Shown piece by piece: positions 1 through 33,151 of a stretch of DNA of 64,000 nucleotides. The stretch's first letter is position 1. Every line of letters starts with the position of its first letter. The translations under genes were made by a program, and so were the position numbers. The notes beneath the pieces are model-generated. The model was not told the DNA's origin. It searched no databases and was given only the letters and a program-made list of their open reading frames with translations. The DNA lies in assembly GCA_951406725.2 (NCBI GenBank), contig OX597816.1, forward strand, positions 96,038,001 to 96,102,000. Reading direction: 5' to 3'. The stretch comes from Octopus vulgaris (taxonomy: Eukaryota).

Positions 1-370
1 CCTTGTACTTGTAATGTACGAATCAGAAAATCCCAGTTTATCTAGATTCTCCTTTCAGCATTTACGAACAAAATATAGCGCTTCAATTATTATTGGTATG
101 AATATGAATTCATAGTCTGGATATAGAAGCTGGAGGTTTCAAAGTAGTTGTCCATGGATATCTTCTTTTTCTTTGATTTTCAAAGAGATATTTATATCTG
201 CAGGGCAGTTAACCTGAATGATGGTACATACATTTGTCCCTTTGTCCCAAACTACAATATCCGGCCTGTTATTCTTACATTTGACAGCAGTTTTGATGAG
301 GATATTTCACCAGTATTCCTTGAGTTGGTGTTTATGAATATAGTTCATAACAGAGGGATTTTCTAAGTTT
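1..370 (-). mobile_element. Fragment of RLE-type (R4-like) non-LTR retrotransposon, endonuclease C-terminus
   Basis: Minus-strand translation gives NNRPDIVVWDK...CTIIQVNCPADINIS...LQLLYPDYEFIFIPIII, a PD..D/E restriction-like endonuclease signature; interrupted by stops. Confidence 0.7.
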
Positions 371-3300: not shown

Positions 3301-3649
3301 ATTTGCTGTCAATATCAGAATGTCATCGTGAAAAAAAGCGGTAGGATTACCGTTATACGGATATAAAGTCAGTTGAATACATCTGATTTCAATTCTCACT
3401 TGGTCACATTTCATTTCTATTTTTCTCTCACTCTGCTTCTCTTTCTGTTTCTCCCACTTCACGTATATGTATGTATGATATATGTATATATATATATATA
3501 TACAAGAAGAAACATACACACACAAACACACACACACATATATACTTACTAGCGGTAGGATTACAGATATACGGCCAGTCAAATACATCTGATTTCAATT
3601 CTTTTTGGGAATTTATATATATATATATGTATGTATGTATATATACGCT

Positions 3650-3952
3650 ATGTACTTAATTTATCGACCCCGAAAGGATGAACGGTAAAGTCGACCTCGG
3701 TTGAATTTGAACACAGAAAGCCAGACGAAATACCTATTTCTTTACTACCCACAGAGGAGACAAACAAGGATAGACAGACGGATTAAGTCGATTATATCGA
3801 CCCCAGTGCGTAACTGGTACTTAATTTATCGACCCCGGAAGGATGAAAGGCAAAGTCGACCGCGGCCGAATTTGAACTCAGGACGTAAAGACTGACGAAA
3901 TAACGCTAAGCATTTCGCCCGGTGTGCTAACGTTTCTGCCAGCCCGCCGCCT
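3650..3952 (-). mobile_element. SINE family A (tRNA-like head, Meta-like central domain) with duplicated core
   Basis: Reverse complement reads GGCGGCGGGCTGGCAGAAACGTTAGC...GAGTTCAAATTC (B box)...GCCTTTCATCCTTCCGGGGTCGATAAATTAAGTACC; about 10 homologous copies in the window. Confidence 0.85.
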
Positions 3953-4284
3953 TGCCAAGATATGGAAATTGTTAAAGTATAGTACAACGGTTTAGCATTT
4001 TTCAAACGTGTAGTAAGACTCAAATACGACAGTTTTTCCAAAAGTATTTCTGACTGAAAATATCATACATGCATAGAGTTACGACTGTATGACCCAACAA
4101 AGTATTATTGTTAAGCTGAAACTGTTGCTAATGTAAAAAGAAATGGAATGGTGAAACTATTTTTTCATTTTCTGAAAAAGTAACATTTTGGGCTTGACTT
4201 ACGACACTCTTGCATAAAAGCAACGATATATATATATATATATATGTGTGTGTATGTGTGTGTGTGTGTGTGTACAGTTCTCTA

Positions 4285-4772
4285 CTTCTAACGAATGAAG
4301 ACATCACGAAAATTCATGAACTGATCCTGGAGGACCGTCTCCGAGCAATTTATGAATTTGTTCATATTTGTTTTTTGACTGGTTCGTCCTCGAGCGCCTG
4401 CGAACGAATTTTGAGTGAGGAATTGCGAATGAAAAGAGTTGCAGGAAAATTTGTGCCTTGCTTGCTCACGGAAGATCAAAAGCAGTCATGACTGAATAGG
4501 TGTCGTTAACTGAAAGAACGCAGGTCATCACTGGTGGCAAAAGCTAGTGATACGGAATTTTCAGATGTGGAAGAGGTGAAGAAAAAAAAAACACGCAGGT
4601 GTTAAAAGACATCACGCCGCAAGAGTTCCAGTACTGCTTTGAATGGTAGAAAATGTGCCTGGACCGAAGCATTGCTTCAAATCGAGAATACTTTGAAGGC
4701 GATCAAAATGTAAACATGTAAAACTAAGTGAATATTATTGTAAAATTCTGGTTTCTTTTGGTTCCCCTCGTA
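4285..4772 (+). mobile_element. Internally deleted mariner transposon relic
   Basis: ILSEELRMKRVAGKFVPCLLTEDQKQ (WVPxxL-type motif), C-terminal CIASNREYFEGD, right TIR-like end TTTTGGTTCCCCTCGTA. Confidence 0.85.
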
Positions 4773-5899
4773 TATTATAATCCATAAATCCATAATCTTA
4801 TATAGTTTTCCTTCCATGCATGCAGATGATCCCTGATAACAAATAATCTTATATTTTACTTCATTCTGCAACCTGATGAAAAACAATTCTGATAACAGCC
4901 ATTGTATGCCTTACATGTTTGATAATAGCCATTACATTTCCTGCATTAACCACTCCTTTCGCCTTTTCCCTTTACAAGACAACAATTTTCATGTGGCTTT
5001 GGAGAATAATTGTCATAGATAGACACGTTATGTAGATTGAGTAGTTATGTTCAATCAGTGATTTAGTTTTATCTCATGTGCTATAATTGAAGAACCTTGA
5101 ATATGATATATGTCTTCTTATATATAAATAAGTTTGACCCCATTACTGCGGTCTACAGGTTGGTGGTGACAAGATCGATATACAAAATGGGGCGTAAGCA
5201 AAACGGTTGAGGTGGGGAGACCAAACTAGAAATGGAAGATATGATAGATACTGTGCAAAACACATGAACCAACCATGGGACGGATAAACGAAAAGATGAT
5301 ATCCTGACTGAAAAATAAATACAGCGTAAAGGGAAGGAGCAACATGCGGTAAAAGAAGTAGGGTTATAAGAAAGTTCAGCAAAGGAAGTTATCCTGGAGA
5401 ATGTTGTAGAAAATTGAACCAAGCAGGTTACACTTATTTTCACGGCGGTATACGGTGAGCTTTTAACCACAACAGATGGAGGAATTGTGTTGATATTATG
5501 GTTACCAGTATGGAGTCTATGAATTGTTGAGATAGATTATGATTACATGTAAATCATTGCTTGCAGTGTATGCCTGGCAGCGTAAAAGGAGATCGAAACA
5601 GACGTAATGGAGAAATGTAAACAAATGAAAACCAAGACTTAGACCTCTGAACCGGCTGACTCGAAGTTGTAAGGGGATTTGAAGAAGCGTTCGTGAATCC
5701 TACCCACATTAAAATAAAGGAACAACTTCTTCGTAGTAATGTATGATGTAACTTGATAAAATATCTTGATGTTGAGATGACAGTGCCACGAGAAGGCAGT
5801 ATAGAGGGGATATATGAAATAATGCATTTTGAAATATGAAGTAGGAAATCGAGAGGTGCATGAAAACAGCAGTGAGAGGTACTTTTATTTCATTCGAGA

Positions 5900-7350
5900 T
5901 GTTGTGGCTTTATAGCCACCATATCTTGCTTGGATGGAATGAAACTTAAGAAAGATACCAGAACATTGTTTTCCGAACTGCAGGAGGAGCAGTAAATGCT
6001 TGAGAATGGTTATAATGGCATGTGGAAAATTAACAAAACGGAAAACAAATTGCAAACCCTTGGAAAAAATTCAACAAAATAACAATTACATCATTAGAGA
6101 GTTTATAGCAGCAACTAATTGATGTGGCTCCCTGAATAACAGAGGAAGATAATATATTTTACAGTGGAGAACAAATAAACTATACATTCCGCAGTAGCTT
6201 TTGTGCTACTCGGTCTTACTAGAGAAAATGATTCAGTCGGAATATATGAAATTGTAGTGTTCTCTAGTCGATAGCTGATGAAGGGAATGTCCCGCAAAAC
6301 AAGCTGCGTGAAAAATACAATATAGTTACAATAATAGGTCACTTGTTTACAAGAGAGGAAGGAAAGGGTGTAATTGAATTGTCTTTCACAAGATGATTAG
6401 ATGCGTTACGATATATCCCCAGTCAGATATAAAATCTGTAACAATTGTCAGCCGTTTTCCTTTACTATTTAGCAACAGCACGATAGTGAATTGTTTGCAT
6501 CGAAATATAAATGCATTCGAACTAAACTGTGTTCATGTTGATAATGGATAAATTCTGGATAGTGTATAATCCATTGACAATGGATAATGGAACATATAAA
6601 GATTGATGTTTTCTGATATAAGCAAGATAATATGGTTTGACGAGAGACAGGAAATCTTTTATTCATTAATTTCTCATGATTCACCTAACTGTTAGCTCAG
6701 AAAAATATAATGTGAGGTCAGGAGAGTAATACTGAAAGAAGAAATAAATATATAATTTTACGCTATTCTTTGGGCTGTTAGAGCACCAAAGATGACTTCT
6801 TTATCTTATGAATCACGGGAAAATACGATGGCATAATTTCATCCTATGTGTTGAATCGTACCTTTTCCCAGGAAATTACTCATTGGTTGATACGTCGTTA
6901 CAATCTCACTTAAAAACGTTTAAGACGACTGAATTCCTGCTATATATAAACAAGTTCTGCGCTTGGAGCGTGTGTTGATTTTTACGTCAATATTCATTTC
7001 GTTCTCTGTATAGAAACCTTAAGCTGTCACAGGTTTTATGCATAAGGGAGATTTTAAGTAAATTGTAACACTCCATGACATTTTACCTTCTGAAATACTT
7101 GGTTTTAGTAAAATATATTTGCTATGAACACCGTTAATAAAAGCTACCTCACATACTGTACTTCCTTTTATCTGAATATTCTGAATCTGGATATGCTGAA
7201 TTCGTTCAATGAAATATCTAGTCAACACGGAGTCAGCAGTATACGAAAAATTGAATCTTACGGTTTCCACATCCGAACAAGAATTTTCCGTCTTAGCTTT
7301 GGAAGTTCGTCACTGAGGAGACGAAATCAAGTTGAAACATTGTTTTGACA
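5900..7350 (+). mobile_element. Highly decayed Penelope-like element (tentative) ending in a hammerhead-like motif
   Basis: Faint RT-like remnants (GxxMG-, DD- and YRKxTH-like codons at ~6580-6900) and CTGAGGA...GAAAC motif at 7309-7349; boundaries approximate. Confidence 0.3.
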
Positions 7351-8295
7351 GAAACATTGTATCTGTCGATCTCCCGATGCTCTGAGCAAAGTTCTGTACT
7401 TTTTAGCACAAGATCATCTTGATGAGTTTCTCGGAGACCAAATATTACTCGTATACACATTACAAATAGAGATACTGGTATTCAGTCGGTAATTTGACAT
7501 TTACTGATCCAACAATTTGCGACTGCTTACAATTCTTAATCATGCAAAGATATTAGCTAACGGTGGAATACATCACACATACAGCATTTGGCAGAGAAAT
7601 ACATCACGCATCACATATCTCACAGTGTAATACATCATAGGTAATTGTCAATCTGCGGAATGATTTACCGAATAAATTTTACATAAATCCAAATATGTTA
7701 TCGGAGAAAAAAAAACATACTCGCTATTGGCATTTAACAGAGAACAACTATAAGAATATGTCATGGTATGATTGAATATGTAGCAAATTGTATGTTGAGA
7801 TTAGATGATTGGGGAAAAGGAAAAGAAACAAGAATTAAACTGAGAACACTTGAAAATGTTCTCTAAAAGTGATTTACAACATTATTTATAGATGTAAATG
7901 AATAAGTATGTAATCAATATAATACATTTAATTAAAACCAGTGTGTAAACTTCAAACGTTAAGATATTTCAAAGTCTCTTTTGAAGCTGTCCAAAAGTTT
8001 TAAAAATGGTGAAATCACTAGACTTAGAAATATTAGAGTTGTTTAGTGGAGATAACCGTATAAATGACTGAATCATTAATAGCTTCACTCTAAAATTCTG
8101 ATGGGGTTCTTCGTGAGTTTCACCCTTCCTGGGTTAATATAAAGAGAATACGAAAGTCAGTGTTTAAATAGGTTTTTAAATTAAGACAGTTTGAATTGAT
8201 TATCTGACTTTTATTCCTACCAGAACAGTAGTCTCATGTAAAGCCAACGAGTAAATATTTAGTTATACTTGACTGCATTCAATTCTAAAAATATT

Positions 8296-8523
8296 TGTTT
8301 ACTACCCACAAGGGCTAAACACAGAAGGGACAAACAAGGACAGACAAACGGATTAAGTCGATTATATCGACACCAGTGCGTAACTGGTACTTAATTTATC
8401 GACCCCGAAAGGATGAAAAGAAAATTCGACCATGGCGGAATTTGAACTCACAACGTAGCGGCAGACGAAATACGGCTACGCATTTCGCCCGGCGTGCTAA
8501 CGTTTCTGCCAGCTCACCGCCTT
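8296..8523 (-). mobile_element. SINE family A copy
   Basis: Colinear with the 3650-3952 and 47612-47995 copies. Confidence 0.85.
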
Positions 8524-10679
8524 CTTCAATTCTAAATAACGTGTGCTTTCTTTATAAAAGTCGTGTGCAATATCTGTCTGTGAACTTTTCAACCTTTATT
8601 TTCTCTTCATGTGCAAATGAAGATTAAAAGCTGTCTGGAGTCTTAATTTAGTGCAGTTCTTATAACCAAATTCCTAAGCTTTTCAGAAAATTTAAATTTT
8701 AGAATTTATTACAAGGTGTGGATGGGTGCTTGATATGAAATTTTAACCAAAAGATATAAATCCTGTATTTAATTTTCACTGCAATACAAGCTAATATTTC
8801 ATTTGGATACTGTTTACGCAATGTTATGAAATTTTTACGGCTCCAGAAAATGTGAAGATTGGCAATAATAGCAGATTGTTGGATTAATCTTCTTGCACTA
8901 TTAAAATTATTCTACCTATATTTAGAATCGAAACCGCTTGAATCAACTTTATGAAGTATTAGTGACTGCCTGTAGCTACTTGCGTTTCCTGTGGGCTCTC
9001 CATGGTTTTGTAAGGTCCTGAAAATGTGTATGTCGTGTAACATCTAAGATTTACAAGAAATATTTTAGTATATTACTTATTGGCTTTTGTAAAACTTTCG
9101 CAAATTTTCGTTGCTTAACTGCTTTCCAGTGTCGCGATTTAAAGGTTCGTCGTCTGGTCTTTTGTAGTGATTAGTTGAGTTGATAAACGAAAATATGTTT
9201 CATTGGCTGCGTGTTGTAGTCGCTGAACAACACCTGCTAACATTTAACAGATGCTTTTATTATCATATATAGAGACAAACTGTGTTGGCTTTTAGAAATA
9301 AGAACAGCAATAATTACATAATGGGAAAGAGATTGCTTGGTGTTTATGGCAAGCTATTGATACGGCAACATGTGGCTTGTCCAACATAGCTGGAAATAAT
9401 CGTGCTGTATTCATGGCGACAGAGGTTCGTGTCATCTATCTGTGCCATCTGTCTTATTGTCTTCCTGGATCGTCTGGCTGATAAAAATGCGCGCCCAAAA
9501 GTTTTTATAGGAAACCGGACGTTTAATTGTAGGTTGTTTGAAAAAATCTGTCCACGATATCACGTTATGCAGATTGGTCAGTTAAAAGATCGATCATGTG
9601 AAACTGTGGTGGTTTGGTCATCATGTCTGATCGCATATCCAGGCCATCGATCCTTCTTACATCAGTCTGTGTGATAAAGACAACTGCATTAGATGCAATA
9701 AACATTAAACAGAGATGGTTGTATATGTAATTCAAGATTCATATTTATTTTGATATGTTGCCTTACATATTATTTGGAGTATATTTTAGTTTGTATAACA
9801 TGACATATTTGTGTGAGTGTGTGCGTGTACATGTGCATGTACGTGTGTGCATGAGTGTGTGTGTGTAAGTGTGTTAAAGTCTATTTCCACATATATTTAT
9901 AAATTTAAAATATATCTGGTGCAAATACATAATTTAACATATCGATATAAAATGTGTTACACCACAAAATATTCTTCAGTTGTTACACATGTTTTAACAA
10001 ATAATTAAACTTCCATGCAGAAAATCCGTTTCTCTTCGCCTTTATTATTCAACCGGTATTGTCTCTTGCCATTTTTTTTGTCAGATTTTGTTTCGAATAA
10101 TTTTGATCCGATGATATATGAATTTTACACTGTTAATTTTAACATTATTCAATCTTGTGACTACATGATGAGTGAAATTAAAAATGCATTATTTGCTTCC
10201 TTACAGTAAATACGCTCATATCATACATCAACATGTAGCTATGTAGCTTTTTAGAGACTAAGCATTGGCAAAATTCATTGTATATGAACATACATATGAA
10301 TATGCATACATATCTACTTGCAGTCGTGCATGCATTCATACATATATCATGCATATAAGACTACCCTGTTGTCTATATTCCATCTTATAACATATATAAT
10401 TGTAATGGTAGGGTGGGCTGTTTTGGATAAAATGAAAAGGGTGCAAGAGTATTAGTGTGAGAGAAATGAGGTGGCATAGGGAGAATGATTGATATCAGGG
10501 AAAGGGAGAACAGATTTGTGTAAGCGACAAATATGGAATAGCAGTGGGATGGTAAAGTTAATATAGCTGTCATTTAGGGACACACACGCGCGCGCTTTCA
10601 ATCATTTTACAAAGCCAAGTCATAATAAAGAGGGGATAACTATTGAAAACAGTGTGTGTGTGTAGGGGGGAGTTCGACT

Positions 10680-10852
10680 GTCTGTCTGTATGTATGTATG
10701 TGTGTCACACGCTGTCACCTTTAAGGAAACGAATGATTTAGATCAACGATTTACTCTATTAACATATATACCCTTATGACATTACGCACATGGATGGAAG
10801 TGACTTAATCATATTTGTGATTAAACCAAACTCATTCTTTTTTCTGATCCCT

Positions 10853-10890
<38 letters not shown>

Positions 10891-11324
10891 ACTCACACAC
10901 ACATCTTTCATATCACGCTCTTTCTCGCTTCGCAATCTCTGACTATCTCTCTCTCTTTCTCTCTCCACACACGTCTTTCACATCACACGTTTTCTCACTC
11001 AGCTGAGAGTTTCGTGTTAGCACTTAGGGTTACAATTTTGAATTAGAATAAGGATTACGTTTAAGCAGAAACTGAAAAGGGGACTCAAAAGATTTGAAGT
11101 TGTGTACAGATTTTTACAGAACTGAGGTTGCATATGTTTAGAATTTGGATATCAAACAAAAATATATTAAATGAAGAAAAAAAAGGTCTACAAAGTATTC
11201 TTAGTCCGAAATTTTGCGGAGTGTTTTTTCGAAAATATTTATTATAAGTTAGATAAAGAGCTTTGCAGTGTTACTGTTAATTCTTTGAATCATTAACTCG
11301 GGCAACGCCGGGTATTTCAGCTAG
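10680..11324 (+). mobile_element. Non-autonomous Helitron-like element (3' end clear, 5' end approximate)
   Basis: Hairpin ACTCGG-GCAACG-CCGGGT at 11296-11313, then CTAG|T at 11321-11325, the canonical Helitron 3' terminus; TCTG/TATG tract upstream as in the 32316-33151 element. Confidence 0.6.
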
Positions 11325-12011
11325 TATAGTATATTTTTAGACGAGAACATTACTATTTATCCATTGGTGAGAAATTCGAATCCTCTGTTGTAATCCCCTG
11401 TCGGACTATTATAAAGCGCACTCCGGTAGAGCAGTATACTTAGACAAGACCAGGACTATCTATGACCGTCTACTTCGGTACACTCTCCTATACTGCCACT
11501 GACTGACAGTATTGATAACGACCAGCACATATCACTCCTCACGTGCGAGGGGTGTTCTATTATTACTATTGCAATAACAATAACGAAGAACGAACATACA
11601 TATACTCCCTTACTTGGCTTACACAAGATGAGCAAAAACTGGAATCCTTCGTATTTTTTATAATATTATCGACCTACACCTAAACTTTTCCTATCAAATT
11701 CGCTACTTGAGCAAGGTTATATATATTATATGAAAAGTCAGGATGCATAATGTCGTCTTGCAGGAATAGCCGCTAGGATATCGACAGGCTGAAGTCGGAC
11801 CAGAATATTTGAGCCTACCGGGTGTAACACTGTCACCATCAATGGCTCCAGTTTCACTACCACCGTTATTCCCAATATGTTCTTTTTTCATTGTCACTCA
11901 GGTTGCGCAACTACCAGTGTTTTTATTGTGATACCATCACTAGATTAATCAGCTCATGAGGAGGGGGAGGAGGAAGCTCCACCAGTTTCCTTTTATTATT
12001 ATTATCATTAT

Positions 12012-15000
12012 TCTATGTTTCACTTTTGCTTTATAGTTGTACAAGTTGGCTCCAAGTCTCACCCAGAGACCTCAAGAGACAACAGGTTGGAAGTTCACGT
12101 TGTTGTTGTGCCTAGTGTGCCATATATTTGGGGTTTTTGGTGTTGTACTAGTGAATGTCTAATAAATAAATAAAATAAAAAATTAAAATAAAATAAATAA
12201 ATAAATTAAAAATTGCTTGTTTTAAACCTTGAGATTACATAGAAAGTATTTTGCGTAGGATATGAGCAGTTCCCATGAGCACTATCTTTTGAATTTCTGC
12301 CATTTCGAGGTTTCCTGGTATCTGAGTTAGGTAGCAATTAGCCCCTTTCGCTATCATTCCCAGGGCACCTATGACAACAGGTATTGTTTTAGTCTTCAGG
12401 TTCCACATTTTGCTGATTTCTATTTCTATTTCAAGCACTGGAGGTGGTTTGTATTCCCACCAGTTTTTTTTCATGGGGCAAATCTAGGTTTTTGCAAATT
12501 ACCCAGTGAATATATTGTGCAGCTCTATCATGCCTGTTGAGATACTCTGTATGCGCTAGAAGACTGCACTTGGAGACAACATGATCAATGGTTTCATTTT
12601 GTTGTTGACATACACGACATGTTGGGCTACTGCCGTTCTTTAATATGTTGGCCTGGTAGTTTCTAGTTGGTAGGTATTGATCTTGAGCTGCTATGATAAA
12701 CCCCTCTGTTTCAGATTTTAAGTCAGAGGCCATTAGCCCTTGATGGGTTAGGGCTTTGTCAATATCTGCATTATTCGCTCTCTTTGGGTATTTGCTATAG
12801 AAAGGTTTTTCTTGCCATTTATCATTCAGAATATCTAAGGCCGCAGTTTTAGCACGGGTTTCCATGCGCTTAGCTTTTTCTGTGCTTGTTTCTTGTATAT
12901 CTATCTCTAATTCCGAAATTTGTTGTATTCGGAATTCACTTAGATATTCCTTTGCCTGTTTTGTTACTGAGTATGATGCTTTCTTGTTTTCATGTTTTGA
13001 GACAAGTTTTAACATCCAGTCCTCAAACTTTTTCAGGTAGGTGTCTAGGCCAATTGTAGCAATCTTCATTGTTATTGCCAGTTGTAAAACAACAACGGAC
13101 TCCCTCTTTTCTTGGCAGATAAAGTCGTTCTGTATCTGCCTTAGGGTGGTGCATTCTATGCATAGTCGACAGTTTTCGTATTTTTCTGTCGAGCTGACAT
13201 ATTTCAGTAATTGACCAGTTAACGATATTGAAACTGTAAGTCACGACTGGTATGGTTAATGCATAGATCGCTTCGATCCTGTTTCTCGCATTCAGCTGTC
13301 TTGAGTATTGCTCTCACTCTTCGATAGCATTCTCTCCTGATCCTTTCCTTCATCTCTGAATGCCTTATTCTGTCCCCTTCAATTACCCCTAGGTACTTGT
13401 AGCTCTCCGCTGGGTCTAATTCTTTTATGACATTCTGCTGGTCAAGGTTAACATTGGATGTTTCTGTCATTTTTCCTTTGATAAAGGTAGCTTTTGCACA
13501 TTTATCGAGGCCAAATTGCATTCTGATGTCGTCACTGGATTGTTTGACTATCGCTAGTAAGCCCTTGAGTTGTTGGTCATTTTTTGCAAAGAGCTTTAAA
13601 TCATCCATGTAAATGAGATGATTTATATTTTTATCAAACATTTTATATCCGTACTGCGCGTCATTGAGCAGTTTTGAGAGAGGTATTAAGGCTAAACAAA
13701 AGAGGAGTGGTGATAGTGAGTCACCCTGGAAAATGCCACATGAAATTTTTACATCACCAGCATTTAGAGATTCATTTTCACTGTTCAAAGTTAGTGTGGT
13801 TCTCCATGATCTCATACTTACAGTCAAAAAGTTTCGCAGAGTAGGTGCTATCTTATACATTTCCAGGCATTTCTTAATCCAGCTATGTGGTAGGCTATCA
13901 AAAGCCTTTTTATAGTCTATCCAGGCTATTGATAAGTTTTTGTGTCGTTTGTGACAATCTTCTAAGATCATTTTATTGATGAGTAGTTGATCTTTACAAC
14001 CGTAGGATCCACGTTTATCCTTTCTGTTCATTAGGGAATATGCTGCTGTCTGTTAAAAAACTATAAGTATATTCCGTCAGGACAGATGTTAGCGTTTTAT
14101 ACATAGTTGTTAAGCAGGTTATGGGTCTATAGTTTTTTGGTTCATTTGTTTCTTCACTTTTTGGAAGCAGGAATGTTAACCCATTAACTAGCCAAGGAGG
14201 CATCCTACTAGGGTATTGCAAAACATCATTGTAAATTTCTGTTAGCAGTTCATGGCTCTCTGGGAAGGCATTCAACCAGAAGTTAGGAATTTTATCCTTT
14301 CCTGGAGACTTCCATTTGCTTGACCTCCTGAGAGCAGATCTTATATCTTCTACCTTGACACTCTCCCACTTTTGCTCTTGTAAGGAGTCCAATTCTGTAG
14401 ATATTCTATCAATCCAGGTGGCCTTTTCGTTGTGTGTTTTTTCTTCTGCCCAAATTTTATTCCAAAATCCCTGCCCTTCTTCTTTTGATGATACAAACTT
14501 TACAGTAACTGCTGTTTTTCCTATCTTCCTGTAAAAATTTGTGGGGTTATTTCTAAACATGTTGTTGTCCTTGAAAAATCTAACACGCTTTTCATACCTC
14601 GCTATGCGGGCAGATTTAGCAGATACCTTTTGCTTGATGGTTTCTATGGTGGCATCAATATCAAATATAGTTTTCATATTATATTTTTTTCATTAATTAT
14701 TGGGTTTTTGTAGGTTTGGTAGTCTTGTGAACCTTAAGTTTTTTCAAATAGTCAATGTCAGATCTAAATAGTTTAATTTTTTGTTGCAGACGCTCTTGCC
14801 AAGAAGGCTTTTTGTGGGAATGTTTTCTAATCTTTACACCTCATAGGATCGTTGAGATTTTCGCGGATGCATAGTATAGGTGGTTGAGATCTGTGATATC
14901 AATATCATTAGCTGAAATTATATCCTTAAGTGCAAGCCGGATTTTACTAATTATTTTCATGTTTTGGTTAGAGTTGCGGATTTTAGGGAGTGTATCGCGT

Positions 15001-15951
15001 TCATCCATGCTGGTTTCCTTAATTTTCAGCTATTCAATCATGATTTGATTTTTTAGCTCATGTAGTTCTGTTGGGTCAATATTTATGTGACTTTCTTTAT
15101 CTATTTGATCTTCATCTGTCTTAGTGTTTATGATTGGTTCAGGGAGTATTTCACTTTGCCTATCACTTATACTAACTCTTTCAATCCTTACTTCGTTTTT
15201 ATCAGCCCTGGGCTGGTCTATAATTATTTCCTCTGTATTATCTTCTCTAGCTGCAGCTTCGTTCATTTTATCCGTTACTGCTTGTCTAATTTGATCAATC
15301 TCTACTTCAGTCAGTAATTTTTTTTTATAATGTTTCTTCTGACGTTGGCAAGTTTGTTACTGTCTATGTAGGGTCTTGCTTCAGGGTGTTTCTGTCTCCA
15401 GTTTAAGTATGTTTGTACAGTGCTCCATTTATCTGTGGGGAAATATATGGCATGGTAGAAGGCCGCAAGAACTTCTTTATTATCTTCCCAAGACCATTTT
15501 TCCTTCTTTTTCTTTTTATGTTTTGGTGACGAACATGGATGGCCATCTGTTGGAATATTCCGGTTGTGGGGTACGTCCAGCTCCTGTGTGTTGGGAAGAT
15601 TTGATCCAGTAGCTGAATTTTTCAATCAGAATTTGGTTCAATTTTTGGGTACGTGGTCTTTTGTAATCCGCGCGATGACCATTGCGGTTTGTAATTTGTT
15701 TTGTTGACATTGAAGAATGACGAGCTTCGACTCTTACATTAGGAGACGGATCTGTCAGTTTAGGGTTCTCTGCACGTAAACATTGCTCGTAGCGCAGCTT
15801 CTTAAGGCTAACAGATCTGTATTCGTCTGTAATTCTTTTGTTGATAGATTTATCTCCGAACATAGTTTTCTTTTTAAACTTATGAAAGGTTCACTCTGCC
15901 TGTATTAGTTCGAAAAGATGAGAATAAAATACGGAAGAAAAGGATCTGTCA

Positions 15952-15952
<1 letters not shown>
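12012..15952 (-). mobile_element. Near full-length R4/Dong-clade non-LTR retrotransposon in a (TAA)n microsatellite
   Basis: Single ORF architecture RT + CCHC + RLE; ~90-bp 5' UTR; 3' UTR 12012-12235 shared with the 44957 copy; (TAA)n on both flanks. Confidence 0.9.
12235..15863 (-). pseudogene. Disrupted Dong/R4 polyprotein (reverse transcriptase, zinc knuckle, restriction-like endonuclease)
   Basis: ORF pieces with KSPGKDKIPNFW, NYRPITCL, WIDYKKAFDS, GIFQGDSLSPLLF, HLIYMDDLKLF, YKYLG, CRVCQQQNETIDHVVSKC, RHD, PVVIGALG; several frameshifts and a stop at ~15030. Confidence 0.9.
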
Positions 15953-16009
<57 letters not shown>

Positions 16010-16158
16010 GATATCACTGATACTATGGCTTTTATATGCAGTAGCAGCAGAGGTTGCAGCGTCAGCAACAGTAGCGTGGGTGGGAGTAGTGGTAAGAGTG
16101 GTAGTTGGGCCTCAGATACCTGTGCTATCATAAAAGTAGTAGTTGTAGTGTTAATTTA

Positions 16159-16205
<47 letters not shown>

Positions 16206-16206
16206 T
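15953..16206. repeat. (TTA)n microsatellites
   Basis: Direct reading: arrays at 15953-16006 and 16160-16204. Confidence 0.95.
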
Positions 16207-16925
16207 GGGGTGGTGATCTGGCAGAATCGTTAGCATCCCCCCCCCCCAAATGGATCCCCTTGTGGCAAAATTTATTATTATATCATTTTTACTATTATTA
16301 TGAGAGAGCAGTGCATGCCATCAAAATGACACTGGGGAACAAATATACGAAACCCAGTATTACCCATCATGATTAGCCACATTTCGTTCATCTTTACGTT
16401 CTGAGTTCAAATTCCGCCGAGGTTGATTTGCCCTTCATCCTTTCAGTGCCAATAAAATAAGTACCATTTGAACGGGGATCGATGTGATCGACTTATCCCC
16501 TCCCCCCCCAAAAAAAAATGGATGCCCTTGTGGCAAAATTTGAAACCCTTATTATTATTATTTTTACTATTATTATGAGAGAGCAGTGAATGTCATCAAA
16601 ATGACACTGGGGTACAAATATACGAAGCCCAGTATTACCCATCATGATTAATCGTCTGATAAGGGTACACGAGGCGCATGCATCACCACCATATGTGCGC
16701 GACATGGTGATCTCATTTCATTATTACTATTGCCGAGGCGGCGAGCTCAGTGAATCGTTAGCACGCCGGGCAAAATACTTTGAGCTATTTCATGTCTGCG
16801 CGTTCTGAGTTTAAATTCCACCGAGTTTGCCTTTCATCCTTTCGGAGTTGATAAATTAAGTACGAGTGAAGCACTGGGGTCGATATAATCTACTTACTCC
16901 CTCCCCTGAAGCTGCTGGCCTTATT
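16205..16925 (+). mobile_element. Scrambled SINE A copies plus two reverse-oriented ends of the (AAT)n-tailed repeat found at 53630
   Basis: SINE head and core motifs; ~140-bp local duplication (16237-16375 vs 16501-16650) containing GAGAGAGCAGTGCATGCCATCAAAATGACACTGGGG. Confidence 0.7.
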
Positions 16926-17953
16926 GTTATTACTGTATTTATTTTACATTATATCGGCACAGTTCTATCCATCCCCCACATAATGTTATTGACAGTTGGT
17001 ATCATTAAACTGCAGCAGGCGTAATACAATAGCAGCTTTTATATGCATATTCAAAACGTTGCCCGTAAACGCACCAAAAGGATGTGTGACGGTTTCTGTG
17101 TCTATACGTATATATGCAGGAATTTGTATGTGGTGTGTATGTATACCTTTAGAACGTTGATATAAACGGATCGAAAAATATGTAAATAAATCTTTATTAA
17201 AGATATGTCCCGAAGCAATAAGCTATACCTAATAGCTTAAATACATTAAACCAATTTGGATAACGTTGTATGTTCATTTCTGTTATGGATATACTTTATT
17301 TAAAAGCACAACTAACATCGGAGAGAGGCAAAAATGGAACCTGAAGTGGCTTGTGAGAACGTCAGACATGCTACTTCCTCGTTGAGCACTGTTAATAGTG
17401 TGTACTCAAAGCCAACGGAACACTTTGGCAAAATTTGTCGACATCGATACACACGAAAATAATGAATAAACAGGGACTGGGGTTGTGAATACCTGCCCGG
17501 CAGAATAAATATATGATATATGTAATAGTAGCATCATTAGATTAAAATAATCATCTACATATCATACATAATTAAAATATATTGTGAAAGGCAAATTTGT
17601 TCTCAATACGTATGTATGTATGTATGTGTGTTGGTATATATAGATGTATCTATGTATCTCCCTCTCATTTTCTATATGCATGTCTGTGTGTATGTGTTTT
17701 TGTGTGTGTATATGTTTGTGTGTGTGTGAATATATATATATATATATATATCAGTTTTATAGAGACTATATTAACCTCATAAAGTGATGATTACATCCGA
17801 GAAAACTCTAGTTTTATACCAAATATATTTTTGGGAAATACGATTTCCCTAAATCAGTAGGTAAATATTATGCGTATAATCCGTATTCGCTTAATAGCAG
17901 AACACAAAATGGAAAGTTAAAAGTTAATTATTTTTTAATAGAATGGTACTTCA

Positions 17954-18044
17954 TTCTTCCTACAGCTGTTTCAATGAAATAAATTACAAATTTATGGTTT
18001 AAATTTGCATTTACTAGGTATAACACAATATCATCAGGGCAAAA
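17954..18044 (-). ncRNA. Degenerate type I hammerhead ribozyme motif with long stem II insert
   Basis: Reverse complement TTTTGCC-CTGATGA-(~60 nt)-GAAAC-AGCT-GTA-GGAAGAA; stem I mostly pairs, stem II decayed. Confidence 0.55.
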
Positions 18045-18204
18045 GATACACGGTAAAAGTTTACATGTTGACATCAAGGTTCATACTAGCACACTAAGTA
18101 TATGGAGTTATTTTATTTTTTATTTATGTGTGTGTGTGAGAGATAACGGATTGATTTTAATATAATAGGAAATCAAGTAAAATAAGTAATAAGATAGAAT
18201 AAAT

Positions 18205-19925: not shown

Positions 19926-20021
<96 letters not shown>

Positions 20022-20052
20022 ATATATATGTATGTATATATATATATGTATA

Positions 20053-20096
<44 letters not shown>

Positions 20097-20099
20097 TAC

Positions 20100-20142
<43 letters not shown>
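18990..20142. repeat. Compound microsatellite field: (AT)n, (CA)n, (AAT)n
   Basis: Direct reading. Confidence 0.95.
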
Positions 20143-20145
<3 letters not shown>

Positions 20146-20217
20146 CGGTGCTCCAGCATGGTCACAGTCAAATGAGTGAAACAAGTAAAAGAATAAGATA
20201 ATAGAATATATATATAT

Positions 20218-21222
20218 CCCTCACTAGCTATGCTGATGACACAAAGGTAGCACAGGCAATCAAAAACCCAGCTGATGCTGACCTTTTACAACAAGATCTG
20301 GATGCCATATACAAATGGGCTGAAGACAACAACATGCAATTTAATGCTGGTAAATTTCAAGCCTTACAATATCAAGCTGTAAACACATATACATTACAAC
20401 ACAACTATACTGGTCCAGGAGGGATCGAAATCCCAGTATCGAAATCAATACGGGACCTGGGGATAGACATGAGTGACGATGCATCTTTTTCTTCACACAT
20501 CGCGAAGGTGGCGACAATGTGCAGACGACTCACTGGCTGGATCCTGAGGACATTCCGGACAAGAGACTGCGAGACCATGTTGACACTATGGAGGACATTT
20601 GTCCTAAGCCGCCTGGACTACTGCTCCCAACTGTGGTCACCGCATAGTGTCAAACTAACCACAGAGCTTGAGACAATCCAAAGACATTTCACCAAGAGGA
20701 TTTCCACCATGAAAGAAAAGAACTATTGGGAGAGGCTTAGGGAACTCAATTTGTACTCCTTGGAACGAAGACGAGAGAGATATGCAGTGATATACATATG
20801 GAAAATCCTGGAGGGACTAGCACCAAATTTTGGAATTGAGAGCTGTTCCAATCCCCGTACAGGACGTCACTGTGTGGTGCCAAAGGTCCCGTCTTCCACA
20901 TCCAGGGTAAGGAGCAGATACTGTAATAGCCTGGGGTTCAGGGGCCCTCAGCTTTTCAACAAACTGCCAAGAAAACTAAGAGATCTACATGATGCGGATG
21001 TGGACATTTTCAAAAAACATCTAGACAAGCTGCTTTCCGGGATCCCAGATGAACCCACTGCAAGGTACGAAGGTAACCTAAGGGCAGCAGCTACAAACTC
21101 TCTCTTAGATCAGTGGCCAGCCACGGCAAACTGGACTTAGAGAGGGTAGCAACAAGGGCGGTGCCCCAGCATGGCCTCAGCCGGATGGCTGAAACAAGTA
21201 AAAGAGTAAAAGAGTAAAAGAG
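20218..21222 (+). mobile_element. 5'-truncated CR1-group LINE, RT C-terminus and 3' tail, embedded in (AT)n
   Basis: YADDTKV, LQQDLDAIYKWAEDNNMQFNAGKF, RDLGI, LDYCSQLWSP, YSLERRRERY; frame open from ~20220 to 21140; tail ends in (GTAAAAGA)3. Confidence 0.92.
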
Positions 21223-22104
21223 TATATATATATATCATTATACACACACATATATGTATATATGTCATTATTCAGTTTATTTCAATGTATCTTGCCAATA
21301 GAGAAAGAACCGTTTTCTAACCTAGGTCAAGGCTCCTCAATTGGAATTTCAACATGTATGTATGTATGTATGTATTTTAGATGGTGGTAGGATATACAAT
21401 ATTTCCAGAGAAGCAGTGAACCCGAACTCTTGGCTATCAGCACTGTCGGTTTCCAGACTAATGCCGGAATTCTTCAAGTGTAGAAAATTCTGGTTTCACG
21501 ACAGTCACACCGTAATGTGGATTCGGCGAAGAGTAAGTTATAACCCAAATAATAAAGGCAAAGAAATACTTCAACACATCGGTAATGATTCGTTGCAGCT
21601 GTCCCTGTAGCAACTCTACTTGCAGCGCCAGTTTACACAAAAATTCGATGTGAAAGTTTACGTAATATTTTCAGTTTTAGACATTATTACGCCCTGAGAA
21701 AATGCCAGACGTTATTACTGGCACTTTCACAGACTTGTATCAATGATGTGCTCTCAGCTTTTGTGACTTCCAGACATTGTTGTTTTGTTTTGTTTCAGGG
21801 TGAAACAAAAAGTAAATATAATTGTGGTAACTAACGTAGAAATCACGCGGTGTGGTGGGCGAGACAGATATAGAGGAGAAGGAGGAGGAGGAGGTGGTGG
21901 TGGGAGGAAGAAAAAGAAGAAGAAGAAGAAGAAGAAGAAGAAGAAGAAGAAGAAGAAGAAGAAACTAACATTAATAAATTAGGTGGCGCCACATATACCA
22001 AATCACTATATCTGAACTAAGGATTTTCATGATATATATAGACACTCACATACGCATGCGAGTGCTCACACACACACGCACACACACATATTATTCTAAA
22101 AGGT

Positions 22105-22260
22105 CTGCCTGTGTGGTAAGAAATTTGCTTTGCCACAATATGGTTCTGAGTTCAATCCCACTGCGTGGCACTTTGGGCAAGTGTTTTCTACCATAGCCCC
22201 CGAGCCGATCAAAGCCTTGTGAGTGGATTGGCAGGCGGAAAATGAAAAAGCCTCGTTGCA
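22105..22260 (+). mobile_element. SINE family B 5' half (tRNA-like head)
   Basis: TGTGTGGTAAG...GAGTTCAATCCCACTGCGTGGCAC; homologous to the 49597-49995 copy. Confidence 0.8.
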
Positions 22261-22644
22261 TACACACACACACACACGCATACACACACACATACACACA
22301 CACACACCCACCCACACACACACACACACACAAGAGCTCAGATGCTCTAACGCTGTAGTCAAAGCACATAATTGTATGGGATTGTAATCGTCCGAAAACA
22401 CCGATATTTTCGGACAATTACAGTCCCTGTCCGTATACATGTGCTTTGACTACTATATTAGAGTATTTTAGCTCTTACTTCTAGCAATGTAGGTGTTTCT
22501 AACACACTAGTCACATTTAGTGACAATTATAATTTTCCTTTTTGGTGAAACATTGTAAACTTCTGTCTATATTAATTTTCTGTATACACATTAGCAATTC
22601 GTAGAATTATCCATTGATTTCTATGATGGAAACATATATACTGA

Positions 22645-22885
22645 CATAGCTCTTCAATATCCTACCGAAGGACCTGAAAGACCTACATGGGATGGATGTA
22701 GGTGTTTTCAAAACGAAACTGGACACCTTACGCTCAAGTGTCCCAGATGAACCAACTTCACAACAGGAAGTGCAGACGAGGGCAGCGGCATCAAGCTCCC
22801 TCATGCATCAAATGTCAATTTCTAAAAAGAACTAGTGAAGTAAAATTATGTAGCAACACCAAATGTTGATGCTCCAGCATGGCCT
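22645..22885 (+). mobile_element. Short 3' fragment of the CR1-group LINE
   Basis: LFNILPKDL.DLHG..V.VFK..LD..L..VPDEP, homologous to 20950-21110; ends GCTCCAGCATGGCC. Confidence 0.8.
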
Positions 22886-22907
22886 AGATCAAATCAAATC
22901 ATATGTA

Positions 22908-22968
<61 letters not shown>

Positions 22969-23085
22969 AAAGGAATTCCAACCTTGTCTGATTTCCATGT
23001 TTTATTTTCAATCTTATAATGATATAATATAAGATAAAATAATAGAATAAAATAAAATAGTAGAATGTTAACTGTTCATTCTGAT

Positions 23086-23130
23086 TGAACTAGTACTTTC
23101 ATGCATTAAATTCTGCAATCTTCAGGTTCA
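23086..23130 (-). ncRNA. Minimal type I hammerhead ribozyme (left arm)
   Basis: Exact reverse complement of 23216-23260. Confidence 0.8.
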
Positions 23131-23215
23131 TGTAGTAGTGGTGACAGTCATGCTTCACAATTTTTGACTGAAAAATTGTCAAAAATTGTGAAGCATGACT
23201 GTCACCACTACTACA

Positions 23216-23260
23216 TGAACCTGAAGATTGCAGAATTTAATGCATGAAAGTACTAGTTCA
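23216..23260 (+). ncRNA. Minimal type I hammerhead ribozyme (right arm), PLE-type
   Basis: TGAAC-CTGAAGA-tTGCA gaatttaa TGCAt-GAAA-GTAC-TA-GTTCA: 5-bp stem I, intact core, 4-bp stem II, palindromic stem III loop, UA cleavage site. Confidence 0.8.
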
Positions 23261-23494
23261 ATCAGAATGAACATTTAACATTCTACTATTTTATTTTATT
23301 CTATTATTTTATCTTATATTATATCATTATAAGATTGTAAATAAAACATGAAAATCAGACAAGGTTGGAATTCCTTTTATTAATATATTCTTCTATACAC
23401 AATCACACACACCCGTATATATATATATATATATATATACATACATACACAAGCATTCATACGCACACATATTATACGTATATATATCTATCTG

Positions 23495-23695
23495 TGTGTC
23501 TTTGAGTTTGTGCTTGTCGCACGCTATAGATTGACAACCGGTGTTGGTCAGATTTCGTCTCTGAAACAAAACAATTCGGTAGAAAAAATACTAAACATTA
23601 AAAAAGAATTAGTACTGGGATCTATTTCTTAAAACCTTTCAAAGCAGTGCCCCAGCAAGGCTTCAGTCCAGTAACTGAAACAAGTAGACGATAAC
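23495..23695 (+). mobile_element. SINE family B 3' half (decayed)
   Basis: TTGACAACCGGTGTTGG...GCAGTGCCCCAGCAAGGCTTCAGTCCAGTAACTGAAACAAGTA. Confidence 0.7.
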
Positions 23696-25662
23696 ACATT
23701 AGAAATGAAAAGTAGAACAAATATAAGACAATGAAGTTCCGTTGACTGACACACATATTCTTGTTATAAATATATGTTTACAAACATGTGTGTGTATGGT
23801 GTATGTATAACAACGAAAACAACAAGTCTATAAGCACCTGTAATTCGAATAATTACACTCATAGTTCGAACAATCACATTCACAGAGACGCTCACTACCA
23901 TATATATGCACATCTATCAGCGTCCTAATTTCATATACAAACACAATTACTTAAAATGCACCTCACCTACACAAGGAAGAAAAGCAATTGCAGAAAACGG
24001 TTCACATTTATAGGACTACAGTAATATAGTGAGACACCCTGACAAACTAATCAATAAGCAATTACTTAACTAATTAATTGATTAACAAGAAAGAATGTGA
24101 ACAAGTGTGTGTGTCTTTTTTTAGTATCTCTTTTAAAGTACAATATACACACACAGAGACGCGAAAACACACATGCCCAAGTACATACACGCACACAGAT
24201 ATATATGCACGTATATGTGTATATATACATATGTGTGTACATTATACTATTATATGTGTGTGCTGAATATTTGTAAATACACACACCTATAACACATATG
24301 TGTGTGTATGTATATATAGATATACATAAGTATCTTCATATACACACATATATATGTACACACATACACACACTCACATATATCGTTATAAGTTTTGTGT
24401 TACCAGACATTACAATAAATAATAGATATAGAATTAACGAAGTATTACAAATATATAAAACTGTTGTGTTTAGAAACAGACGGAGTATTCAATCACCGCA
24501 CCTCTCTCTGTTGAACCAACAGCTTACTTCACAGTAATCTGCCGTTCATGGCTGCATATATGTTGTTGTTTTTTTCCTTTTCTTGTTTTGATTGTCAGTT
24601 TTGTTCAAATTATCTTTTTCTTTTTTTGTTATTGCTATTGTTGGCAAATGCGGTTTCTAAAGACGAACGTATCAACATTTTACAGGACTGAAAACAGATC
24701 ATAATATAAAAAGAGCATGAGGAAACATCGCTTTATATAGTAAAAAGTATAATAGCTATATAATACGCACGTATTGTGTTTTGATATTTTTATACTCACC
24801 ATTAGCGCATTTTTCTGTCTAATCTCAGTGACAGAACAATAGGCATTGGAAATAAAAGAAATATTGTATGAATCTTATTTGCTGCCCAAATGATCCGTCT
24901 TCCTTATTGTTAGATAAGGAAAAGCTGAGAAATTTCAGCTGTGGCTGCTGTTATTGTAAAGCTATTGTTTATAGCTGTTTTGTTCAAAACCCGTCCGTTG
25001 TTTGGTAGGTGTCATTGATGTTCAGTATTGCCATCGCAAACAGTACAAAGAAATGTTAAAATTTCATGGCTAGATTCATATTTCTAGGCTCAACAACCGG
25101 AAAATATTGACAGAAAATTGATATATTGTTGAAATCGTTAATACTTTAACCTGCATCAATACTACATATGTGATATTTAAGAACGTTTATGTAAATATTT
25201 GGTAGTGGTAAAAGAAGATAGCGAGCCGGAGAGAGCTAGGTTAGTGGGATACCGGAGTAAATGCAATACAATATTTTGAAGTTTACTAAGTTAAGTCTAA
25301 GTGTTCAAATCGATCAAGATCGACTTGCTAAACAGAGCAAGAGTGATCAACCGTTTGAGTACCAACAATATTCTTGTTTCGATTAAATAGAATAAATCAC
25401 GTTACCAGTGTTATTCAGTGATGTGAAAGCAAGAAATAGAAAGAAATCAACATCTGGTCTCAGATACTATTGCATATATTGGAAGTTTCTTGCTAGGAAG
25501 TTCTTATAAGCTTTGTATTGTTTATTTCTTTCTGTTCTTGTTTTAAACGAGAACAATGAAATATTTGATGTAGCCAACAACTCACTTTCACCAGACGCAG
25601 TGGAATAATGTCAATTATCAATTTCATCTCATATTTAATACCCGATGAAATTAATGAATATT

Positions 25663-26560
25663 TTATACGTGGGTTATACCGAATGTAATGTAAATGTGAG
25701 TAATAGCTTTTTATTAACTGCCATTGTTCCTTCATGTACTTGTTGCATGAGTAACTCTTCTTCGATACAGTAGCAACTCTTCCCGATTGAAGCAAATGAT
25801 GGGATTCATGCAGAAGCAATGTGCCATCATTGAGTTCTTGATAAAGGAGGTTACTGGCTACCCAGGAGGCACAAAACACTACAGTATGTTCATGGGGATG
25901 ACACCATTGACAAAAACAATGTTCACATAAAGATGAAGAGACGTAAAGAAGAAGAAACGGACAATAAAGAAAAACCACGCAGTAGGAGACCATCATCTTG
26001 CAGGGTATTCGAATCGATCTCTGAAACGAATTGTTAGCGAGTGGATGAAATGCTTCGAGCGGACAGACGAGGCACATTCCATGAGTTTATTGCACAAATA
26101 TATTGTTGTCACAATTCATTGCAGAAGATGGCGAAAGATTTTAGGTATCGGAAAACGTATGCAAAGGTATCACTTCAACAGTTGACATCTTATTTGAAGA
26201 GGAGAAGGGTAGAAATCTGCTCTGATTTGCTGGAAGCATTTGAAGCCAGTTAAATCGTCTGTTTTTCCGATCTGGTGATAGAGGATAAAACGTGAATGCC
26301 TCTTCATGATCTGGAAACCTAACCTGTCCAAGGAATCACGTCATACTTCTTCTCCGAGGCCTAAGGCGTTCAAGATCCAGCGATCAGCACAAGAAGTCGT
26401 GGTGGCTGTTTTTAGGATCACAAGGGTGTCATTCACCTTGAGGTTTTGGAAGATTGCTCTACTCTGAACAGCGAGAAAAATACCGAGTCACCAAACACTT
26501 AGAGAGACCACTGGAAACTATGATGAGTTATTCAACCAACATGTAATATGAACGACCTGT
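25663..26560 (+). mobile_element. Decayed mariner transposon
   Basis: Left TIR-like TACGTGGGTTATACCGAATGTAATG, QCAIIEFL, DKT*M..HDLET (DETW..YDPE-like), VF.DHKGV. Confidence 0.7.
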
Positions 26561-29226: not shown

Positions 29227-29430
29227 CGTGACCTCGTGAGTACCACCGGCGATTTTTTTCCTCTGTCTTCCCTTCTCGGGATCTTTCCTTCTCCTATGTT
29301 GCCGACGAAGAGCTCCGCTCGAAACGTTAAACCCTCCTTCTTCTCTTCTTTCCTGAGCGTCCAATAATACTTTATTTGTTCCACGTCCTTGCGTTGTTGT
29401 GTTTTTTGTTTTCTTGTTTGGATTAACCTT
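29226..29430 (+). mobile_element. ~200-bp hammerhead-bearing repeat (solo PLE pseudo-LTR-like) flanked by (TA)n
   Basis: GTTG-CCGACGA-A-GAGC tcc GCTC-GAAA-CG-TT-AAAC at 29298-29332; sister copy at 32102-32290 on the minus strand. Confidence 0.7.
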
Positions 29431-30988: not shown

Positions 30989-31419
30989 GTATATATATCT
31001 TTTAAATTTGTTAATGAAAACTGTTTTGAATACTCATAGAGAGCTCCTATTCTATTATGCTAACCATAGTCTAATGATGTTGACTGGTGAACCAGTTTTT
31101 CGGGATTGCATCGAGCTATACCAATGTAAGATAAATATAATATTAATAGCAATATTCCTTGGATGGAATTTATAAGCATTTAATGCATCGCTGCTCGCTT
31201 TTTCACGAATCACATGTCTCTTAAGATCGTAAGAGACATGTAGTTTGTGGAAACGCCCGTAGCGATGCATTAACTCTTTATAAATTCCATTCAAAGATTA
31301 AGGTTGTATAACATAGGGAAGGACCTTTATATGTGTTTGTGTATGTGTATATATATATATAAAGAAAATTCACGGGAATTTTATGTTGGAAAAAATATGT
31401 ATGAAATAAATATATTTTT

Positions 31420-32101: not shown

Positions 32102-32106
<5 letters not shown>

Positions 32107-32290
32107 ATCCAAACATGAAAACACAACAACGCGAGGACGTGGAACAAGTATAGTATTATTGGACGCTCAGGAAAGAAGGAATGAAGGAGGGTTTAACGCT
32201 TCGAGCGGAACACTTCATCAGAAACATAGGAAAAGGAAAGATCCAAAGAAGGAGGAAAAAAATCGCCAACGGTACACACGCGGTCACATT
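32102..32290 (-). mobile_element. Second copy of the ~200-bp hammerhead-bearing repeat, flanked by (TA)n
   Basis: Reverse complement GTTT-CTGATGA-A-GTGT tcc GCTC-GAAG-CG-TT-AAAC at 32191-32225; colinear with 29226-29430. Confidence 0.7.
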
Positions 32291-32315: not shown

Positions 32316-33151
32316 CTAGCATTGAAGACCCGTCGTTGCCAGGTCATAGTGCTAGTGCATGTATATATGTGTATATATATGTGTACATATTACATGTACA
32401 TCTATATATATACATCTACACATAAAATGCAAAATACAAAGTTATATCTTGATATCGCTAGTGATAACAATACAGCTCTTCTTTTTTCTCTACATTGTAT
32501 ACTTTATAGACAATAGTCTTCTCTTTAATTTAATCTTTTATTATCCATCTGGACTATTCCATTTCTGCACGCTAATTTTATTTTTAATTTAATTCCCATT
32601 CATGTGAAACAACTTATTCAAGTTCAAATCATTGATGCAATTTTATACCAATTGCTATTTTTACTTATATTATACTTTAGTCTGATTTTAATTATTACTT
32701 ACTACATATAATTCAAATGTTATTATTATTTTTATTGTTAAAGTTAAAGCATCTGACATAAAATAGAGAAATATTTTTGATTCACTTTTAACACGTAATA
32801 CTGAAATAGTGGAGAAGATATGATATTGCTATGGGCTCGCTCTAGGCAAGATGTTGAACATTTTTTTTTGCCCATGAAACTACATGGACCCTAAGTAAGG
32901 CGTGTGTAATATTTGAATGAAATTGGCTGTGTAGTTCTCAAGTTTTAGGGAATCGTAGTGGAGAAGATATGATATTGCTGTGGGCTCGACCTAGGCAAAA
33001 AGTTAAAATTTTTTGCCGATGACACTCCCCGGACCCTAAGTAAGGCATATGTAAAATTTGAATGAAATTGGTTGTGTAGTTCTCAAGTTTTAGGGAAACA
33101 CACAGGCAGAAAGACAGACAGACACACATTCTCAGTTTTTATATATAAAGA
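32316..33151 (-). mobile_element. Complete non-autonomous Helitron-like element
   Basis: 5' A|TCTTTATATATAAAA, 3' hairpin-like CCTGGCAACGACGGG then CTAG|T; A|T insertion site without TSD; internal ~149-bp tandem duplication (32807-33097). Confidence 0.8.

Follow-up and report, generated by a model that had tools for sequence, protein, structure and literature searches.

The palindrome at 22964-23415 of the window (the whole stretch of DNA analyzed, 64 kb in length) has, at the DNA level, the marks of an insertion by an EN+ Penelope-like element (PLE). Within a (TA)n microsatellite, two copies of a high-copy repeat, each represented by its 3' part, are joined head to head, and it is very probable that this arrangement is a product of PLE machinery. 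With regard to mechanism, we favor, with moderate confidence, a single truncated insertion by PLE enzymes that involved priming on two strands. The layout is already published, and the repeat is a further PLE-type example that is ordinary in kind. The locus is retroelement debris of a described type and bears, as a single example, on two questions about PLEs, namely how their head-to-head inversions form and whether cleavage by their hammerheads is necessary, the latter in view of an expanded subfamily of the repeat that carries a substitution in the hammerhead core (U4C). The points of note are this subfamily and a recurring junction with a 1-nt loop.

Layout of the palindrome and its repeat family

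The top-listed inverted repeat in the window comprised a left arm on the minus strand (22964-23168) and a right arm on the plus strand (23178-23382), each 205 nt in length and separated by a 9-nt loop (23169-23177). Only three of the 205 arm positions are mismatched, at offsets of 97, 161, and 174 from the loop, and comparison of the arms bore out the original description of a palindrome with ~205-bp arms, a 9-nt loop, and an identical inner 96 bp. Every reading frame in the arm is interrupted, in agreement with the claim that the unit contains no ORF. The left arm forms a short end that lacks a tail and adjoins a (TA)n tract (22901-22965) that is the likely insertion target, with the boundary of the arm uncertain by ~2 nt. 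The right arm forms a long end, where a 33-nt tail (23383-23415, plus strand) of 70% A+C precedes a second (TA)n tract (23416-23439). No such tail is present on the left. The original prediction placed the unit beside (TA)n, which holds for the left tract, but it overlooked the tail and the second tract on the right.

EN+ PLEs are described as leaving an inverted 5'-truncated copy and a one-sided tail of 30-40 bp, with a bias toward microsatellite targets, and palindromic head-to-head junctions are described as standard for them (PMC3846280; PMC8557442). The locus has an inverted 5'-truncated copy in head-to-head orientation, a tail of 33 nt at one end, and (TA)n on both sides, in which a target-site duplication would be unreadable due to the microsatellite itself.

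The surrounding window is animal DNA that is rich in microsatellites and retroelements. Broken ORFs of non-LTR retrotransposons were identified at 12431-15890 (-), 20205-21140 (+), 54330-55809 (+), and 63185-63682 (-), with RVT_1 matches at 13222-14052, 20205-21137 (under the cut-off), and 54698-55171, and none for 63188-63682. A two-copy tandem repeat of 145 nt, with copies 86% alike, occupies 32807-33097. Two other imperfect palindromes were also observed. One is an older palindrome (22332-22476; 72% self-identity) that adjoins (CA)n ~500 bp to the left of the unit, and no hammerhead core was found in it; the other (31153-31300; 80% self-identity) is without an intact hammerhead core.

Parts of the stretch were present in 20 of 24 listed public sequencing runs, from 12 studies and six organism labels, and the repeat family was analyzed in the assembled contigs of six of the 24 runs (X1, X2, X4, X5, and X7 among them). 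Summed contig depth on the arm reached 4e5-9e5, compared with 48-64 on the unique right flank (X1 and X2). This corresponds to rough bounds of 621-18,070 arms in X1 and 305-8,095 in X2, where contig depth is not to be equated with copy number. Relatives of the repeat extend upstream of the arm without forming a palindrome, from loose ends at 23178 and 23183 that share a consensus (30 letters visible) and that were counted in 6+19 contigs of X1, 19 of X2, and 14 of X4. Since this upstream sequence is shared and non-palindromic, the arm represents the 3' portion of a longer sequence. At the other end, family sequence runs beyond the arm to at least about 23395-23400 in all four runs compared, with the last 14 nt of the tail masked, which shows that at least part of the tail belongs to the element. 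The base at 23348 is A in both arms but G in 98-99% of depth in four of four runs, and this shared rare base points to a single source copy or to conversion between the arms. Depth arithmetic with hand interpolation suggests that palindromes with a 1-nt loop, described below, account for at most about a quarter of the arms (16%, 27%, and 17%) and that most depth fits non-palindromic copies. The literature covered contained no paper on this repeat family in octopus or on a palindromic double-hammerhead unit; the family may nevertheless be catalogued in Repbase or Dfam, or in the supplements of PMC4209133 or PMC8557442.

Hammerhead motifs and their predicted masking

Each arm carries one minimal type I hammerhead motif, and the two are identical. 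The plus-strand motif (23216-23260) has a 5-bp stem I (23216-23220/23256-23260), a core that begins at 23221, a U.U apposition followed by a 4-bp stem II, GAAA at 23246, and a stem III formed by a self-complementary hexamer (23249-23254; predicted duplex of -4.8 kcal/mol), with A17 at 23255 and a predicted cut after this position. Its mirror on the minus strand (23086-23130) has a core that starts at 23125 and a predicted cut after 23091. The individual parts first noted in each arm (stem I, core, palindromic stem III, and UA site) are present as claimed. These parts conform to the CUGANGA / GAAA / UH pattern with a stem I of 4-5 bp, and to the short palindromic helix III of minimal type I hammerheads in PLEs. 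The description of the ribozymes as intact holds for the core letters alone, and they are to be regarded as candidate ribozymes.

The proposed type I motif scan was carried out with a descriptor of our own, which was composed after the motif had been seen and permits an unpaired first position in stem II. It matched twice in 64 kb, at the hammerheads of the two arms and nowhere else, compared with a mean of 0.017 matches in 60 order-3 Markov surrogates and 0 under stricter limits. The covariance-type check that had also been suggested, made here via Rfam, gave a different outcome: none of 69 matches at E <= 5 in 20000-26000 was to a hammerhead model, and hairpin-like miRNA matches fell under their gathering scores.

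The G10.1-C11.1 pair of the published consensus (PMC4209133) is replaced by U.U in both copies and family-wide. We considered U.U at 10.1/11.1 as a product of decay and rejected this, since the state is family-wide and is shared by 14 of 25 families of the Hydra clade (counted by eye in File S2 of PMC8557442). Only five positions in 23140-23300 vary at >=3%, and 23245 is not among them. In the core, no letter besides U4 is variable at >=3% in three DNA-type runs. At U4 (window position 23222), C accounts for 62% of summed depth in X1, 31% in X2, and 45% in X4. The U4C subfamily is very abundant, with 3-36 high-depth contigs per run, but none of the 43 depth units in X7 belongs to it; one relative in X7 has an 8-nt palindrome in the place of stem III. 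U4C is reported to reduce hammerhead activity in vitro (PMC3088659), and minimal PLE hammerheads are reported to cleave weakly and as dimers (PMC4209133). No cleavage assay of a Hydra-type U.U stem II was found in the literature covered. Another repeat is represented by two solo copies beside (TA)n, at 29230-29428 (+) and 32103-32290 (-), in inverted orientation and separated by 2.7 kb; in the former, a palindromic stem III accompanies a hammerhead-like core that carries U4C (29302), and the core of the latter is decayed.

Folding predictions for the monomer hammerhead were no more stable than those of shuffled sequences. The predicted pairing probability of stem I ranged from 0.07 to 0.93 depending on the RNA ends chosen. 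It was about 0.26 in the construct first proposed for cleavage tests (23205-23275) and 0.93 when the RNA was cut at 23263, and the low value is explained by competition from 23268-23272, a copy of the 5' strand of stem I. A 2-bp stem III with a 2-nt loop is beyond what the folding model can evaluate. A read-through RNA of the whole unit is predicted to fold at -316.6 kcal/mol with probabilities of 0.0 for stems I and II, and such an RNA would be predicted to mask the ribozyme completely. The antisense arm would be transcribed first on either strand, and the duplex would be expected to win as the sense arm emerges. Antisense masking of this kind had been put forward at the outset; the masked duplex is indeed predicted, but the wording that it competes with self-cleavage appears too mild. 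The two motifs cannot dimerize in cis, being on opposite strands. Because of this placement, the predicted need for a dimer, and the predicted masking in read-through RNA, the hammerheads are probably passengers at this locus. In X7, which is presumed to be of RNA type and provided seven contigs, the sole A>G site was 23235, which is also a DNA variant; X7 therefore says nothing on editing or transcription. A scan for bacterial promoters gave matches at chance level and was judged irrelevant.

The central junction and its proposed origin

The centre of the palindrome carries an exact 9-nt duplication (23171-23179 = 23181-23189), which supports the early suggestion of a templated scar such as that left by a template switch. 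The loop can be described as a 1-nt-loop form to which an 8-nt copy (23171-23178) of 23181-23188 has been added; when eight of these nine loop letters are absent, the palindrome is perfect. The 1-nt-loop junction was recovered in one X5 contig at a depth of 175.6 versus 5.6 on the flank (about 31x, or ~30 copies) and in one X7 contig. Across the family, depth is high up to 23170 and then 0-55 within the loop. At least eight other head-to-head junctions, in which the minus-strand arm is joined to the plus-strand arm at other offsets, were identified among the matches listed. These join 23048 to 23229, 23109 to 23237, 23123 to 23198, 23152 to 23216, 23164 to 23196, 23164 to 23198, 23170 to 23217, and 23183 to 23241. 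The last was present in two studies, and most of the listed junctions occur at about single-copy (flank) depth. Some of them may be deletions from symmetric palindromes.

In the mechanism that we favor, a PLE endonuclease would have nicked both strands of the microsatellite, and reverse transcription would have been primed at each nick, with internal starts on the RNA of the element at 23382 and 23415, a spacing of 33 nt. Synthesis of the two short cDNAs would then have ended near 23176, some 40 nt upstream of the hammerhead, where a 5-nt near-palindrome could allow them to be joined. The 8-nt templated copy within the loop may stem from a slip in the course of joining or in later repair. In vitro, a purified PLE protein has been shown to cut both target strands and to extend them, with reverse transcription starting at two internal positions of the RNA that delimit the tail within an AC-rich stretch; ribozyme activity is not required for these steps (PMC11167929). 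The long and short ends of the locus fit the two start sites observed in that study, and the one-sided tail fits two-strand priming better than a simple fold-back. Against the two-strand route, the symmetric arm starts are equally predicted by snap-back, and the 1-nt-loop junction recurs identically.

Snap-back would share the PLE origin and would differ in that a single cDNA, begun at the long end, turned back on itself in two steps, which left the 8-nt copy, and was self-copied to 33 nt short of its start. This is unlikely, although it accounts for the symmetric arm starts and for the rare base at 23348 that is common to both arms. The segment 23150-23179, moreover, is predicted to fold as a 9-bp DNA hairpin (-5.9 kcal/mol) that could serve as an intermediate, and self-priming has been suggested for head-to-head junctions (PMC3846280). 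Snap-back alone gives no reason for copying to stop at an offset of one tail length, several of the other junctions are asymmetric, and the extension of both strands in vitro (PMC11167929) argues in favor of the two-strand route. In addition, a 1-nt loop, such as that which recurs here, is too tight for intramolecular priming. A fold-back artefact of sequencing or assembly would also yield a palindrome, and it is in keeping with this that no listed piece covers the whole locus and that the exact loop is thinly supported (depth of 10.3 in X1; 0 contigs across the loop in X4, an absence that carries no evidential weight). However, the arms differ at three sites, the ends are asymmetric, one of them bearing the family tail, an X2 contig that is one A shorter crosses the loop at a depth of 55.1, diverged contigs bridge the centre in four of four runs of one set, and the 1-nt-loop form is present in two runs. 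The arm differences, asymmetric ends, and related junctions therefore make an artefact highly improbable.

The recurrence of the 1-nt-loop junction raises the question of whether the palindrome itself is a non-autonomous element copied as a unit, such that the locus would be a daughter with an 8-nt slip at its centre. The identical junction in X5 and X7 and the up to about a quarter of arms that depth arithmetic allows in such palindromes are compatible with this. We nevertheless regard it as improbable, since most depth fits non-palindromic copies, at least eight other junction positions exist, the long and short ends fit assembly at each landing, and a junction hot spot at the near-palindrome or at an RNA start would account for the recurrence; furthermore, a 205-bp duplex RNA would presumably be a poor template. 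Somewhat more broadly, the 1-nt-loop junction could mark either a palindromic double-hammerhead element that is complete in itself and is copied whole by PLE enzymes or a fixed 5' end of a PLE RNA where both cDNAs run off, and together these possibilities are still rather unlikely. If true, the dozens of identical junctions, the catalytically odd U.U stem II, and the expanding U4C subfamily would amount to a direct genomic test that bears on how PLE inversions form and on the importance of the ribozyme. A further alternative concerns the parent and is compatible with the two-strand mechanism: the source of the arms may be a retrozyme-like unit without coding capacity that depends on the enzymes of PLEs, rather than an autonomous PLE. 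High copy number, the large U4C subfamily, and the report that animal retrozymes are PLE derivatives (bioRxiv 10.64898/2026.07.22.740005) lend this some plausibility. Conversely, the window is without a tandem unit, no head-to-tail joint occurs among the matches listed (a unit longer than the stretch would escape), and the hammerhead is minimal rather than canonical, such that a retrozyme-like parent appears possible but doubtful. We retain two-strand priming by PLE enzymes as the preferred reading of the locus.

Parent element and comparison with known systems

An ORF for a parental reverse transcriptase with GIY-YIG domain was not found, and pattern scans of metagenome contigs (twice) and viral contigs returned 0 matches. 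A frameshifted element at 46020-47500 (-) contains pieces that resemble RT and GIY-YIG domains, together with a CxxC linker, and a lone CTGATGA lies near 46008; five of its pieces are without Pfam support. We take this element to be Neptune-like by its motifs. The decayed PLE-like element at 46300-47500 was rejected as parent, having no blastn similarity to the arm. Hydra-1_Obim was likewise rejected, since its hammerhead and 3' end differ. The balance of the data inclines slightly toward a source PLE of the Hydra clade, which is delimited at the protein level by RWK, DKT, and no CCHH. The (TA)n target and stem II match this clade and the start of stem III differs from it; (TA)n targeting is common to Neptune and Naiad as well (PMC8557442). 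Of the original alternatives, a PLE terminus or a retrozyme-like unit, that of an ORF-less head-to-head Penelope-type terminus stands, and that of a retrozyme found no counterpart in a tandem unit in the window.

The Hydra-clade C-terminal EN+ PLEs (Penelope-13_HM, Penelope-5_HM, Hydra-1_Crog, and Hydra-1_Obim; Craig et al., 2021; PMC8557442) resemble the locus in their insertion into (TA)n and in a hammerhead near the 3' end. As here, U.U beside a short stem II characterizes 14 of 25 families, in eight of which stem II starts with UGC, and Penelope-13_HM likewise combines an inverted 5' copy with one hammerhead per strand. In contrast to these elements, the locus is without an ORF, and its stem III starts A-G within a hexamer palindrome, compared with A-C in 25 of 25 families as counted by eye in the material covered. 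Four of five arm words (10-12 letters) were without a match at a hammerhead in the portion of the supplement covered, and the fifth matched Hydra-1_Crog (PMC8557442).

Pen2a of Adineta vaga (PMC3846280) and Poseidon PAc of the anole (PMC11167929) share with the locus head-to-head arms of ~200 bp, a palindromic junction, an optional tail of 31-40 nt, and an AT-rich target. They differ in that both halves here are trimmed to the terminal 205 nt, and the locus is without an ORF, a direct pLTR pair, or a readable target-site duplication. The tail stretch of Poseidon PAc is an AC-rich stem-loop (PMC11167929), whereas the tail here has no stem-loop beyond those of shuffled sequences when the flanking TA is excluded, which speaks against a close resemblance to the anole element.

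PLEs have been reported with paired minimal hammerheads on opposite strands at distances of 100-700 bp, and those of Schistosoma mansoni (Cervera and de la Pena, 2014; PMC4209133) resemble the locus in two minimal type I motifs that lie on opposite strands, no more than a few hundred bp apart, and in a short palindromic helix III. Unlike these, the locus is without G10.1-C11.1, and its stem II comprises 4 bp rather than 7-8. The non-LTR retrozymes of animals (PMC7229834; bioRxiv 10.64898/2026.07.22.740005) are similar in that they are non-coding, AT-rich, and present in high copy number, with a type I hammerhead and a link to PLEs. They are, however, defined by repeats in head-to-tail order that are cut twice on the same strand, with circular RNA as a second defining property, whereas head-to-tail units with two same-strand hammerheads are absent from the locus, where each strand carries a single motif.
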